A DNA stretch of 32,000 nt, from NCBI RefSeq assembly GCF_900079115.1, contig NZ_LT549890.1, forward strand, positions 630,001 to 662,000, in the 5' to 3' direction. Made by a program: the position numbers and the translations under genes. The notes beneath the pieces are model-generated. The model had not been told where the DNA came from and made no database searches. It saw nothing but the letters and a program-made list of their open reading frames with translations. Positions 26,215-30,484 of this stretch are shown here, piece after piece. Within the stretch, counting starts at the first letter, position 1. Every line of letters starts with the position of its first letter. The DNA comes from Saccharolobus solfataricus. GTDB taxonomy: Archaea > Thermoproteota > Thermoprotei_A > Sulfolobales > Sulfolobaceae.

Positions 26215-26520
26215 TCACCCACTTGAATTAAAAGGAACTAAATGTTCCGGCCTAACAATTATCACCTTTTCCTTATCACCCAATGTAACCGAAACTAAAT
26301 ATGCTCTACCTCTTTTTCCAATAATCTTCCCTACTTTACCTTGATAACGCCTATGAGGCATACCTTGATGTACTGATGGATTTATCTTTACCACTACATT
26401 ATCACCTTCCTTATATTCAACCATTAGCTTGCTTAGAGATGGAACTGCACCCCTTTCTCTAGGACTCTTTCTTAGTAGACTCCTTGACCTAGTCCGATAA
26501 CCCTTCGAATGTTTAACCAT
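26215..26520 (-). CDS. rpl21e: 50S ribosomal protein eL21 (L21e)
   Basis: 101 aa: MVKHSKGYRTRSRSLLRKSPRERG...HRRYQGKVGKI. Confidence 0.92.
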   Translation of the reverse strand: MVKHSKGYRTRSRSLLRKSPRERGAVPSLSKLMVEYKEGDNVVVKINPSVHQGMPHRRYQGKVGKIIGKRGRAYLVSVTLGDKEKVIIVRPEHLVPFNSSG

Positions 26521-26609
26521 AATATTCCCTCATACTCATTATATACCACATAATTAAGATTTTTGTTGGAAAAACATATAAGGTAAAACTGAACTCAGTA
26601 TAATAGATT

Positions 26610-26709
26610 GCGGGGGTGCCCGAGCCTGGTCAAAGGGGGCGGACTTAAGACCCCCAAGTAAGAGATCCGCTGGCGAAGGCCTGCACGGGTTCAAATCCCG
26701 TCCCCCGCA
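26610..26709 (+). tRNA. tRNA-Leu(UAA) with a 15-nt intron at the canonical 37/38 position
   Basis: Folded by hand. The acceptor is GCGGGGG/CCCCCGC with discriminator A, and U8, A14 and G18G19 are present. The anticodon stem is GCGGA/TCCGC and the loop is CTTAAG[ACCCCCAAGTAAGAG]A (intron 26650-26664). It has a long variable arm and a T arm ACGGG-TTCAAAT-CCCGT. No CCA is encoded. Confidence 0.9.
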
Positions 26710-26763
26710 TGATAGTTCTATTCGTTCAATTTTTGGAAAAAGAGTAAATTAATACTACAAAAA

Positions 26764-27033
26764 TTAACACGAAATCCCATGATTTGACAAGTAATTCGTG
26801 ACCTCTTGTAGTAAATAATCCTTTAACTCGTTGGGACTCCAATCTGGATTTGCAAGTGGTAAAACGTCATTCAGATAATCCCTTACCATTTGCTCATACA
26901 TTGTCTTCTGATTCCTAGTTAAACCGGGATAAGCTTCAATGCAGTCATTTATTGTAGATAAAACCTTATTATACACGTTTTGTAATTCCCTAGCCCTCTC
27001 CTCAGCTTGCCTATAACCCTCTTCATAAGACAC
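26764..27033 (-). CDS. Hypothetical protein, 89 aa, acidic and helical; third gene of the orphan operon
   Basis: ORF with a GTG start 6 nt after the stop of the preceding gene. No motif recognised. Confidence 0.55.
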   Translation of the reverse strand: MSYEEGYRQAEERARELQNVYNKVLSTINDCIEAYPGLTRNQKTMYEQMVRDYLNDVLPLANPDWSPNELKDYLLQEVTNYLSNHGISC

Positions 27034-27039
27034 TTCAGA

Positions 27040-27456
27040 CTAATCAATGGCAAGTACAGCTAACTCAGCAATGGCTAATGGAAAAACTGCAGAAATCCCA
27101 GCAATAGCCTTTTTCTCCTTATTAAGGGCATCTATTATCACGCCAAATCCCTTGCTTATGTTCAGCTCCTTAGTGTAATTTGCGATACCAGCTGTAGTTA
27201 AATCAGTGGGAGGCTTAATAACGTCCAAAAAGACGAATTCTACTGGATATTGCAAATTATTACCAAGTGGCACATTAATAGCTCTTGTCGAGAAGGATTT
27301 GATTAGTCCCACTAATCCAAATTCTGAACAATAGGTCGCACAGAATTGTCTACTGAACAATGGAGCACCGATATCAATATCATTAAACTTGAAATCGAGA
27401 GTAAACGGTTGAAATACAGTTCCTACTACAATTCTTGTACAATACTCACTAGGCAT
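27040..27456 (-). CDS. Hypothetical protein, 138 aa, with C-terminal hydrophobic anchor-like segment (AIAGISAVFPLAIAELAVLAI)
   Basis: ORF with an ATG 3 nt after the stop of the preceding gene. No motif recognised. Confidence 0.55.
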   Translation of the reverse strand: MPSEYCTRIVVGTVFQPFTLDFKFNDIDIGAPLFSRQFCATYCSEFGLVGLIKSFSTRAINVPLGNNLQYPVEFVFLDVIKPPTDLTTAGIANYTKELNISKGFGVIIDALNKEKKAIAGISAVFPLAIAELAVLAID

Positions 27457-27459
27457 GAT

Positions 27460-28200
27460 TTAATTACAATTATTTAGGACCACATCAATTGGACCATTAA
27501 CCGTAACTGCAAGATAATTTGATAAACCTAACCCACTAGCTACTTGCTTAAATGAGGCCAAAGCCAGATAGATGAAAGGATATTGATCAGAAATAGTACG
27601 AAGTTCATCAGAACTCTTTGCTCCTAACGAACTCCCTATGAGCGTTTTTGAAACATAATAACTACCACTACTACCGGGATAGACTAAATCATCTATACTT
27701 CTTGGAGAAGAAAGCGTTATTTCTGATGCTAAACTTGCAATTGCAACCACTAAAGCAACACCTACTGTAGTTATGTAATCCCAAATTGCACCAAGTAGAC
27801 CTTGGCAAGATTTAAACCTAGCTGGATTGTACCATTCGATCTGTGCTGATACCCTTTTTAACGGTATAATTCCAATTTCTCCATTACTTATAAAAATATC
27901 CCTAGCCTTAGCAGGCAATTTTACTAAACCCCTAAACGCCGCACCACCTTGATATACTGCAATATTACTACCACCTATCCACACTGGTGATATTCCTCCA
28001 ATGTAATAATATTCTCCAGTATCCTCAGTCCTAATCACAATGCCTTGTCTAAAAATCTTAGTTTTCAATTCATAAGCACTTGAACTGTTTGACACGGCAA
28101 CAGCTAATATTCTTTCAGCAACAGCTATGGCAGGGTAAATCTCATACATCTTTTTGTTACCCTCTCTTTTATATTTATAATACTCTTTCAGTGAAATCAT
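27460..28200 (-). CDS. Hypothetical protein, at least 246 aa, Gly/Ser/Tyr-rich with an internal TM-like segment (LLGAIWDYITTVGVALVVAIASLA); the frame stays open for 42 more codons upstream (to 28326)
   Basis: First gene of a three-gene minus-strand operon. The upstream in-frame extension encodes PVKFHIAIGTAARISLSSILSTIGGIIGAIGASLDIAQQQCE without any ATG, GTG or TTG. Confidence 0.6.
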   Translation of the reverse strand: MISLKEYYKYKREGNKKMYEIYPAIAVAERILAVAVSNSSSAYELKTKIFRQGIVIRTEDTGEYYYIGGISPVWIGGSNIAVYQGGAAFRGLVKLPAKARDIFISNGEIGIIPLKRVSAQIEWYNPARFKSCQGLLGAIWDYITTVGVALVVAIASLASEITLSSPRSIDDLVYPGSSGSYYVSKTLIGSSLGAKSSDELRTISDQYPFIYLALASFKQVASGLGLSNYLAVTVNGPIDVVLNNCN

Positions 28201-28330
28201 CTCACACTGTTGCTGTGCTATGTCTAATGAAGCACCTATTGCTCCAATAATCCCGCCTATTGTACTTAAGATTGAACTTAGAGATATTCTGGCCGCAGTT
28301 CCTATAGCTATATGAAATTTAACTGGTCAA

Positions 28331-28344
28331 TGTTTAAATATTTT
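28331..28344 (-). promoter_or_regulatory. TATA box candidate for the orphan operon (AAAATATTTAAACA)
   Basis: Centred at ~28337, which predicts a TSS near 28311. That coincides with an in-frame ATA codon (28311-28309) of the extended frame. Confidence 0.35.
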
Positions 28345-28480
28345 CTCATAACAATAGACAGTTGATATATATACGCATTCATCCATGTAACCATTAAAAT
28401 CATGTTTAAAAGAAAAATGTAATCCTTCTGCAGTTATAATGGTAATAATTTATTACCAAAAACTTCTACTTTATTTAAGT

Positions 28481-28565
28481 GCGGGGGTGCCCGAGCTAGG
28501 TCGAAGGGGGTAGGCTCAGGCCCTACTGGTGAAGGCCTTCGCGGGTTCAAATCCCGCCCCCCGCA
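28481..28565 (+). tRNA. tRNA-Leu(CAG), no intron
   Basis: The acceptor is GCGGGGG/CCCCCGC with discriminator A. The anticodon arm is GTAGG-CTCAGGC-CCTAC. It has a long variable arm and a T arm GCGGG-TTCAAAT-CCCGC. Confidence 0.9.
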
Positions 28566-28610
28566 GTGATAAAATTTGCATACTTGGATAAACAGATAAA
28601 AATCCTAAGC

Positions 28611-28618
28611 TTTTTATG
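28611..28618 (+). promoter_or_regulatory. TATA box candidate for ahcY (TTTTTATG)
   Basis: Centred about 27 nt upstream of the ATG at 28641, which implies a leaderless mRNA. Confidence 0.4.
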
Positions 28619-28640
28619 TTCTTTCGATAAAAAACTTCCG

Positions 28641-29894
28641 ATGAGCTACAAAATAAAAGACCTTTCTCTCGCAAGTGAGGGAAAAAAGCAAATAGAATGG
28701 GCAGAAAGACACATGCCAACATTGATGGAAATAAGGAAGAGATTTAAAGCTGAAAAACCACTAAAAGGTATTAACATATCAGCAGTGCTTCACGTTACCA
28801 AGGAAACAGCAGCACTAGTTAAAACACTTAAAATAGGTGGAGCTAACGTTGCTTTAGCTGGAAGTAATCCCCTTTCAACTCAAGATGATGTAGCAGCAGC
28901 CTTAGTAGAGGAAGGAATCTCAGTATTCGCATGGAAAGGAGAAAATGAGACAGAATATTATTCCAATATTGAAAGTATTGTAAAGATTCACGAGCCAAAT
29001 ATTGTAATGGATGATGGTGCTGATTTACACGCTTACATTCATGAAAAGGTAAGTTCTAAACTTGATATTTATGGCGGAACTGAAGAAACCACAACTGGTG
29101 TTATTAGACTTAAGGCAATGGAGAAGGACGGTGTCCTTAAGTATCCTCTCGTCGCAGTAAACAACGCGTATACCAAGTACCTTTTCGATAATAGATATGG
29201 AACTGGACAAAGTGCCATAGATGGAATACTTAGGGCTACAAACATTCTAATTGCAGGGAAAATTGCAGTTGTAGCTGGATATGGATGGGTAGGCAGGGGC
29301 ATAGCTAATAGATTAAGAGGAATGGGCGCTAGAGTCATAGTAACTGAAGTAGATCCAATAAGAGCTCTTGAAGCAGTGATGGACGGCTTTGACGTTATGC
29401 CTATTGCAGAGGCCTCAAAGGTTGGTGACATATTCGTAACAGCTACCGGAAATACAAAGGCTATAAGAGTAGAGCACATGCTCAATATGAAAGATGGCGC
29501 AATATTATCTAATGCAGGTCACTTTAACGTAGAGGTGGACGTAAAAGGGTTAAAGGAGACTGCGGTTAAGGTAAGAAACATAAGACCTTATGTTGATGAA
29601 TATACTTTACCTAACGGTAAGAGAGTATACTTGTTAGCAGATGGTAGGTTAGTGAATTTAGCTGCAGCAGAGGGTCATCCTAGCGAAGTAATGGATATGA
29701 GCTTTGCCAATCAAGCTTTAGCTGTAGAATACCTAGTTAAGAATAGAGGAAAATTGGAGAAGAAAGTATACAATATGCCAATGGAGTTGGATTATGAAGT
29801 GGCTAGAATAAAGTTGAAATCTATGGGCATTCAAATTGATGAGTTAACAGAGGAGCAAAAAGAGTACTTGGAACAATGGAAATCAGGAACCTAA
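28641..29894 (+). CDS. ahcY: S-adenosyl-L-homocysteine hydrolase
   Basis: 417 aa from [26 protein letters not shown]. The NAD-binding motif is [12 protein letters not shown], and the family pattern is typical ([22 protein letters not shown]). The ORF-track start (GTG 28566) abuts the tRNA and is rejected. Confidence 0.93.
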
Positions 29895-30376: not shown

Positions 30377-30484
30377 CGCCGGGGACGGGATTCGAACCCG
30401 TGTGCCTCAGAGAGGCAGTAGGTCCCTCGCAGTAACGCTGGAAAGGTCTCGAGCCTACCCCCTTGACCGCTCGGGCACCCCGGC
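30377..30484 (-). tRNA. tRNA-Ser(CGA) with a ~24-nt intron at 37/38
   Basis: The minus strand reads GCCGGGG TG CCCG AGCGGTCAA GGG G GTAGG CTCGAG[ACCTTTCCAGCGTTACTGCGAGGG]A CCTAC, then a long variable arm TGCCTCTCTGAGGCAC, then ACGGG TTCGAAT CCCGT CCCCGGC G. Confidence 0.88.

Follow-up and report, generated by a model that had tools for sequence, protein, structure and literature searches.

Between two tRNA-Leu genes of Saccharolobus solfataricus, three open reading frames (ORFs) occupy the minus strand of a 1.8-kb stretch. We analysed them within a window of 32,000 nucleotides (nt) that covers positions 630,001 to 662,000 of the forward strand of contig NZ_LT549890.1 (assembly GCF_900079115.1); coordinates below are positions in this window. 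The three ORFs are very probably one gene and not three, namely a neutrally decaying pseudogene of about 515 codons from an uncharacterised protein family of the Sulfolobales. We favour a single gene because the ORFs share one reading frame, because intact homologues are colinear with it and because disabling lesions are apparent against close relatives. A first-pass annotation had seen an orphan, partly membrane-anchored three-gene operon. Its ORFs (246, 138 and 89 amino acid residues, with gaps of 3 and 6 nt) and both tRNA-Leu genes were found again at their positions (Table 1), and the accessory insert and the lack of a family match also held, whereas the separate ORFs, the transmembrane segments and the three-gene membrane operon did not.

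One reading frame with three disabling lesions

When the minus strand was translated from position 28479 downwards, one frame ran through all three ORFs, with a TAA and a TAG as its sole interruptions. The gaps between the ORFs consist of an in-frame stop codon and ancestral internal codons. The ATG of ORF2 is the internal methionine of the relatives' sequence NNCN-Q-IMPSEY, and the GTG of ORF3 is the internal valine of LAID-W-SEVSYE. On the 5' side of ORF1, the frame was open for 42 more codons (PVKFHIAIGTAARISLSSILSTIGGIIGAIGASLDIAQQQCE), and no ATG, GTG or TTG was found in this extension from the upstream stop to position 28200. The N-terminal extension that had been suspected for ORF1 is therefore real but has no start codon, with ATA in place of the relatives' ATG. 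The protein P0002 begins with MAVGTAAG where the window encodes IAIGTAAR.

The lesions were identified in a three-way DNA alignment with two other copies of the gene. L004 is a Saccharolobus metagenome-assembled genome resembling S. shibatae, with the same synteny from the S-adenosylhomocysteine hydrolase (SAHH) gene to L21e, and L005 is a contig of a short-read Logan assembly. The changes ATG>ATA, CAA>TAA and TGG>TAG occurred in the window only, and all three are G:C>A:T transitions. In P0003, which stems from a Saccharolobus-like read set and is 90% identical, the two stops are replaced by Gln and Trp and the frame is read straight through, with NNCNQIMPSEY at the TAA site and LAIDWSEVS, also present in L004, at the TAG site. 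The Trp at the latter site is conserved in the family alignments. L004 keeps the ATG and has its own nonsense mutation, CAA>TAA at codon 243, which yields the pair of 242 and 265 residues annotated in S. shibatae, and L005 carries +1 and +2 insertions near the 5' end. A majority-rule ancestor of the three Saccharolobus copies is an intact ORF of 515 codons without stops. The three-gene operon is contradicted by the shared frame, by starts that are ancestral internal codons and by relatives that have either one protein or breaks at other places. The fragments occur with exactly these sequences on 46-94 public contigs, so the lesions are not sequencing errors.

In 11 related loci, an A/T-rich box similar to ATATTTAAA was found at the same distance upstream of the start codon, which is ATG or GTG. 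Such a spacing between TATA box and start is typical of leaderless Sulfolobales promoters. The box is a putative promoter of the ancestral gene, and the change of a 5'-terminal AUG to AUA should prevent initiation on a leaderless mRNA.

Table 1. Features of the interval between the two tRNA-Leu genes and its borders
Feature	Position	Strand	Length	Source or remark
Pseudogene, one reconstructed frame	26764-28311	-	515 codons + final stop	
ORF1	27460-28200	-	246 aa	ORF listing
ORF2	27040-27456	-	138 aa	ORF listing
ORF3	26764-27033	-	89 aa	ORF listing
TATA-like box ATATTTAAA	28333-28341	-		22-30 nt upstream of the ancestral start; read from the sequence
Lost start codon, ATA	28309-28311	-		ATG in L004 and L005 (DNA alignment)
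Nonsense TAA, ORF1/ORF2 boundary	27460-27462	-		CAA (Gln) in relatives
Nonsense TAG, ORF2/ORF3 boundary	27040-27042	-		TGG (Trp) in relatives
tRNA-Leu(UAA), intron-bearing	26610-26709	+		Rfam RF00005, 45.8 bits; missed by ARAGORN
tRNA-Leu(CAG), bounds the insert on the SAHH side	28480-28566	+		ARAGORN

Intact homologues

A homology search with the extended ORF1 returned five proteins. P0004 (Sulfurisphaera javensis SJAV_05930, 493 residues) is colinear with the extension and all three ORFs, and so is P0005 from a metagenome (494 residues). The single-protein homologues from Sulfurisphaera and Stygiolobus, with 469-493 residues, are colinear with the reconstructed frame, and colinear, intact, full-length family members of 430-550 residues include P0004, P0005, P0065, P0066, P0069 and others. 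When the window pieces were searched with a hidden Markov model (HMM) of the family, they matched the consecutive profile positions 8-261, 263-387 and 391-454.

Substitution patterns of the Saccharolobus copies

The ratio of nonsynonymous to synonymous changes (omega) between the three Saccharolobus copies was 0.48-1.04 in pairwise comparisons, as against 0.04-0.18 for eight flanking genes compared between two of these genomes. By segment, omega was 0.38-0.82 for ORF1, 0.31-0.99 for ORF2 and 1.0-3.9 for ORF3. With these small counts and a range of 0.3-3.9, no segment was under strong constraint.

Lineage-specific substitutions were polarised by the other two copies, and the neutral expectation was taken from each lineage's own mutation spectrum. 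In the window, 2 stop, 17 synonymous and 31 nonsynonymous changes were observed and 1.9, 14.4 and 33.6 were expected. The corresponding numbers were 1, 9 and 15 (expected 0.9, 6.5 and 17.6) for L004, and 0, 2 and 26 (expected 1.7, 6.1 and 20.2) for L005. The substitutions of the window and of L004 fit neutrality. Intact orthologues across genera had a proportion of nonsynonymous differences (pN) of 0.18-0.36 against a saturated synonymous proportion (pS) of 0.70-0.76. They are constrained, and therefore the family itself is functional. The Saccharolobus copies appear dead or dying. Colinear intact homologues, disabling lesions and a substitution pattern that is relaxed relative to the flanking genes are thus all found at this locus, as is usual for a pseudogene.

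From 26520 to 29400, a range that takes in the pseudogene, the two tRNA-Leu genes and the SAHH gene in its 5' half, the nucleotide identity of the window to L004 is 94-99%. The identity falls to 85-91% on the L21e side and is about 92-94% beyond about 29500. The synonymous divergence (dS) of the pseudogene from L004 is 0.08, compared with 0.32-0.59 for six flanking genes and 0.16 for SAHH. It is likely that a recent recombination tract of about 2.9 kb carried the already unconstrained gene between Saccharolobus lineages.

Location among tRNA genes

Stygiolobus sp. CP850M has no family member at this place: about 930 nt hold the SAHH gene, a tRNA, tRNA-Leu(UAA) and L21e. Six other Sulfolobales-type L21e-anchored loci with upstream DNA also had no such gene, and the family HMM found neither a match nor remnants in the equivalent intervals of other genera. 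By gene order, the 1.8-kb stretch is evidently a lineage-specific insertion in Saccharolobus, and the idea of a lineage-specific accessory insert in a housekeeping neighbourhood was borne out.

The two tRNA-Leu genes had been noted to share their first 16 nt and much of their 3' end, which we could confirm (the last 40 nt are 90% identical). They had also been taken as direct repeats around the insert, and this did not hold. Each of the eight Sulfolobales-type loci checked has a tRNA-Leu gene directly upstream of L21e, the intron-bearing tRNA-Leu(UAA) also stands upstream of L21e in L004, L011, L017 and L018, and the interval contains no partial tRNA copy. The likeness of the two genes is ordinary isoacceptor similarity, and both are resident genes of this neighbourhood that did not arise with the insert.

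The position between tRNA genes would suit a gene left behind as cargo by a tRNA-integrating virus or plasmid that was itself deleted later. This proposal concerns the origin of the gene and is compatible with a pseudogene; we regard it as possible, but doubtful. It draws on a distant paralog (27% identity) at the analogous L21e spot in Acidianus manzaensis, on a paralog in L009 at about 0.8 kb from duplicated tRNA-like attachment (att) segments, with an integrase gene 2.6 kb away and pRN1-type primase and helicase domains after it, and on other copies near insertion sequence (IS) fragments, PaREP1 genes and toxin-antitoxin genes of the HEPN/MNT or VapBC kind. On the other hand, the interval 26710-28479 contains no integrase, the family gene is its only long ORF, and no tRNA-like repeats were found besides the two complete tRNA-Leu genes, with no att-like partial copy and no bounding repeat. 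It therefore has neither the integrase nor the direct att repeats that mark a tRNA-integrated element. No consistent att-like or terminal repeats were found around the family gene, either in the window or in eight other loci. The Metallosphaera copy stands among housekeeping genes. Pattern scans of IMG/VR with four sub-alignments gave no confirmed relative, and a tblastn search with P0004 had no match among the INPHARED phages and the PLSDB plasmids, the PLSDB result being weak evidence. To our knowledge, PLSDB holds few or no archaeal plasmids.

Three related loci were observed in this context. In Acidianus manzaensis (CP020477, L032:8001-9653), the gene of an intact distant paralog of 550 residues (P0012, 27% identity) has stretches of 0.7 kb and 0.8 kb on its two sides that lack annotated genes. 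The order is spermine synthase, P0012 gene, tRNA and L21e, a spot analogous to that of the Saccharolobus insertion. It looks like a hot spot and not like orthology, because the Saccharolobus core is closest to P0004, which is encoded at an unrelated locus. In Metallosphaera yellowstonensis MK1 (L018:4830-6670), tRNA-Leu(CAG) and tRNA-Leu(UAA) lie about 1.84 kb apart upstream of L21e. This interval has no ORF longer than 85 residues, no Rfam match and no detectable family remnant, and a separate, earlier insertion at this hot spot may have decayed here. In Stygiolobus caldivivus (AP024597, L009:9996-12191), two direct copies of about 300 nt with a tRNA-like 3' part, 87-96% identical and 1.9 kb apart, lie about 0.5-0.8 kb downstream of a family paralog. 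Next come an integrase gene (Phage_integr_3) and a gene encoding primase/helicase domains of the pRN1 type, and the arrangement suggests that elements integrated in tandem at a tRNA gene.

The parent family

When 1.84 billion cluster representatives were searched by profile, 62 proteins with E-values up to 1e-3 were returned, which are the family representatives at 50% identity clustering. All named members are hypothetical proteins of the Sulfolobales, from Sulfurisphaera, Stygiolobus, Acidianus, Metallosphaera (Msed_1595), Sulfolobus acidocaldarius (Q4JAS7), Sulfuracidifex and Ca. Aramenus; Ahos_1437 and SJAV_05930 are also among them. Each genome has 2-5 paralogs, which in A. hospitalis are two genes arranged tail-to-tail. 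No conserved gene neighbours were found among the contexts examined. In 5 of 11 distinct contexts, PaREP1, HEPN/MNT and VapBC genes were present no more than a few kb away, and only in L008, L009 and L031 directly upstream, but these genomes are rich in such genes. Other copies are located near IS fragments or an integrated pRN1-like element, and the Metallosphaera copies among housekeeping genes. The family is thereby delineated as an uncharacterised, Sulfolobales-named one with 62 representatives, and intact members in the genetically tractable S. acidocaldarius and Metallosphaera make it open to experimental characterisation.

That the ORFs resemble no characterised family was upheld by all searches. 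With Pfam, PHROGs and NCBIfam, the three ORFs and the extended ORF1 gave only noise. No significant match was obtained for 41 members with Pfam and PHROGs and for 10 members with PADLOC and NCBIfam; the few sub-threshold matches to family libraries each occurred in a single member. The best hit of a profile search of PDB sequences, with E = 0.038, was not significant.

The intact P0004 was modelled with AlphaFold2 from an alignment of 41 sequences, which gave a predicted local distance difference test score (pLDDT) of 91.4 and a predicted template modelling score (pTM) of 0.90. An earlier run with 7 sequences had reached a pLDDT of only 59, and its Foldseek matches were meaningless. The P0004 model is a single globule with an N-terminal helix, mixed alpha/beta domains and a C-terminal helical bundle. 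When it was compared by Foldseek with the PDB and BFVD, the best hits had E = 0.2 in the PDB and E = 0.03 with a template modelling score (TM-score) of 0.24 in BFVD, and none had E below 0.02 or a TM-score above 0.25. The structure comparison thus placed the protein in no characterised family either.

The conserved positions are mostly Gly and Pro, together with R83, Q115, N157, S227 and five cysteines (38, 164, 305, 310 and the one at the C-terminus). Asp, Glu, His and Lys all stay below 75% conservation, a pattern that speaks weakly against a conventional enzyme. A transposase-like selfish gene was considered and rejected: the paralogs within a genome are often highly divergent, terminal repeats are absent and no Asp, Glu, His or Lys is conserved at 75%.

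Membrane anchoring, which had been read from hydrophobic stretches in the ORFs, found no support in the family. The stretches are not conserved: among the 12 members examined, six lack any 19-residue Kyte-Doolittle window that reaches 1.6. In the P0004 model, the regions that had looked like transmembrane helices are short helix and strand elements of a compact predicted fold (pLDDT 72-98), and no continuous membrane-spanning helix is present. The N-termini of the family carry acidic residues, are weakly hydrophobic and do not resemble signal peptides by eye or hydropathy. The protein is not detectably membrane-anchored according to hydropathy and the predicted fold, and the ancestral, intact protein would be a soluble, non-enzymatic, cysteine-rich accessory protein.

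Paralog mosaics in Sulfuracidifex tepidarius

A stretch of 16 kb in S. tepidarius (AP018929, L034:1057-16659) holds five intact paralogs together with one N-terminal fragment. The array is partly an inverted duplication, and fragments of IS605/TnpB and DDE transposases are interspersed. The five paralogs are 100% identical in their core (alignment columns about 170-385) and have alternative N- and C-terminal modules in varying combinations. Their pairwise omega is 0.57-1.07, and none contains a stop codon. Between groups, the C-terminal module of the Saccharolobus/P0004 type scored 110-158 against the P0012 group and about 100 against the P0065 group, whereas the core showed the opposite trend, with about 600 against the P0065 group and about 230 against the P0012 group. 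These data suggest that the paralogs diversify by module exchange.

Because of the module exchange, the paralog arrays and the variable locations, a role in conflict or recognition comes to mind. A soluble protein with five conserved cysteines, the conserved core with swappable termini, the arrays, the occurrence in variable regions and at tRNA hot spots, and the neutral loss in Saccharolobus would fit it. That the intact family is a new fold with a new conflict or self/non-self role in the Sulfolobales is nevertheless an unlikely proposal at present. If it were true, the pseudogene in the window would be a fossil of such a system.

Alternatives to a pseudogene and its likely history

After a gene fission, some or all of the fragments could now be separate, functional small proteins of a three-cistron operon. 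A usable start codon does follow directly after each preceding stop, all three fragments are annotated as proteins in GenBank and RefSeq, and omega for ORF1 and ORF2 is 0.31-0.38 against L004. However, these starts are the ancestral internal Met and Val codons, and no GGTG-like ribosome-binding motif was seen by eye upstream of the start of ORF2 or ORF3. The sister lineages are broken at other places, so the fragments are not conserved; ORF3 has an omega of 1.0-3.9, and the substitution classes, stops among them, occur in about the numbers expected under neutrality. The P0004 model, built on an intact protein, joins the three pieces in one compact predicted fold (pTM 0.90). We therefore consider fission very unlikely.

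Programmed recoding, in which a full-length protein would be made by read-through of TAA and TAG and initiation at AUA, has precedents in fucA1, described as expressed by programmed -1 frameshifting in S. solfataricus (PMC1616953), and in the interrupted genes proposed as recoding candidates (PMC8211752), but it is the least probable explanation and close to negligible here, since it needs three separate events (AUA initiation on a leaderless mRNA and read-through of two different stops), no lesion is common to the close relatives, which have sense codons or ATG, the evolution is neutral, the archaeal stop-codon read-through described as established in PMC8037382 is limited to selenocysteine and pyrrolysine, and an Rfam scan of the window found only tRNAs and no recoding element.

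A few points weigh against the neutrally decaying pseudogene that we favour. The omega of 0.3-0.4 for ORF1 and ORF2 against L004 is below 1, on small counts of 10-17 changes per class. The frameshifts of L005 could be assembly errors, as its contig comes from short reads. A fragment of 229-246 residues may be translated from an internal AUG. The frameshifted expression of fucA1 counts here as well, as at least one split gene of S. solfataricus is thereby expressed.

With these points taken into account, we propose the following history for the pseudogene. A leaderless, monocistronic gene of about 515 codons would have entered the tRNA-rich hot spot in the ancestor of the sampled Saccharolobus copies and lodged between tRNA-Leu(CAG) and tRNA-Leu(UAA), upstream of L21e. 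Selective constraint would have been lost in the Saccharolobus ancestor, followed by separate decay in each lineage. In S. solfataricus, the loss of the start codon and the two nonsense mutations disable the gene, and a functional product would no longer be made. The locus would then illustrate, cleanly and on a small scale, how copies decay neutrally and in parallel once a gene has been inserted among tRNA genes. A toxin/immunity pair or a multi-protein module, both of which had been suggested, presuppose three separate proteins where we find one gene, and the orphan membrane operon does not merit pursuit as a toxin/immunity or envelope module.

Annotation of the locus and its neighbours

ORF1 is identical to SSO0754 (AAK41049), ORF2 to AAK41048 and ORF3 to WP_162009864. 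RefSeq and GenBank list the fragments of 26764-28200 as ordinary hypothetical proteins, with entry names shown without a pseudogene flag, and RefSeq also has a version of ORF1 with 229 residues that starts with MYEIYPAI. The same gene is annotated in S. shibatae as pieces of 242 and 259/265 residues, and in strain B12 as a piece of 169 residues. A literature search found no papers on SSO0753/0754 or the matching UniProt identifiers. The annotation contains three short genes because ORF finders and pipelines split the frame at its two stops; SSO0754 and the two adjacent entries should be joined into a single record that is marked as a pseudogene.

Two tRNA genes, the tRNA-Leu(UAA) and one at 30377-30484 on the minus strand, were detected by Rfam and not by ARAGORN. 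The match at the latter site spans 108 nt, which makes an intron the likely cause of this miss too. A tRNA tally by ARAGORN only would run too low for this genome.

The mechanically derived SAHH ORF includes 28566-28640, with a GTG start that abuts tRNA-Leu(CAG). The SAHH homologue in L004 is annotated from the ATG equivalent to 28641 (MSYKIKD...), and this ATG is more likely the true start.

Comparison with known systems

With mosaic families of the polymorphic toxin-like or variable-protein kind, the S. tepidarius paralogs share an identical core with cassette-like ends. Unlike polymorphic toxins, the family has no recognisable toxin domain, no consistent downstream immunity-like gene and no secretion signal, so that the likeness is one of pattern only. 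With tRNA-targeted integrative elements (SSV-type and pNOB8-type integrases), the location at a tRNA cluster is shared, and the L009 paralog lies beside att-like segments. In contrast to such elements, the window interval consists of one gene only, without integrase and att duplication.

The sulfolobicins SulA and SulB are described as protein toxins restricted to the Sulfolobales, with no wider homologues reported in their description (Ellen et al. 2011, summarised in PMC3387779 and PMC3718332). Their distribution is given as patchy, with truncated, non-functional copies in some strains (PMC3718332), and SulA and SulB are characterised as a required gene pair with Sec signal peptides and an association with membranes or vesicles (PMC3387779). 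Compared by description only, the restriction to the Sulfolobales, the patchiness and the broken copies are shared with our family. Unlike the SulA/SulB pair, the family genes are solitary or in paralog arrays, and their N-termini are acidic and weakly hydrophobic.

The alpha-L-fucosidase gene fucA1 of the same organism is also reported as adjacent ORFs that correspond to one protein in relatives (PMC1616953). It is split by a frameshift and gives an active enzyme, whereas the gene in the window has two in-frame stops and a lost start, its lesions are not conserved and it evolves neutrally. Among the archaea compared by van Passel et al. (2007, cited in the review PMC8211752), S. solfataricus is given the highest predicted pseudogene load, with 8.6% of the annotated coding sequences. 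Although, unlike flagged pseudogenes, the present case carries WP_ and AAK accessions without a pseudogene flag, it is the same in kind as the nonsense pseudogenes of S. solfataricus, with breaks by point mutation, adjacent short hypothetical proteins, intact homologues elsewhere and relaxed selection.

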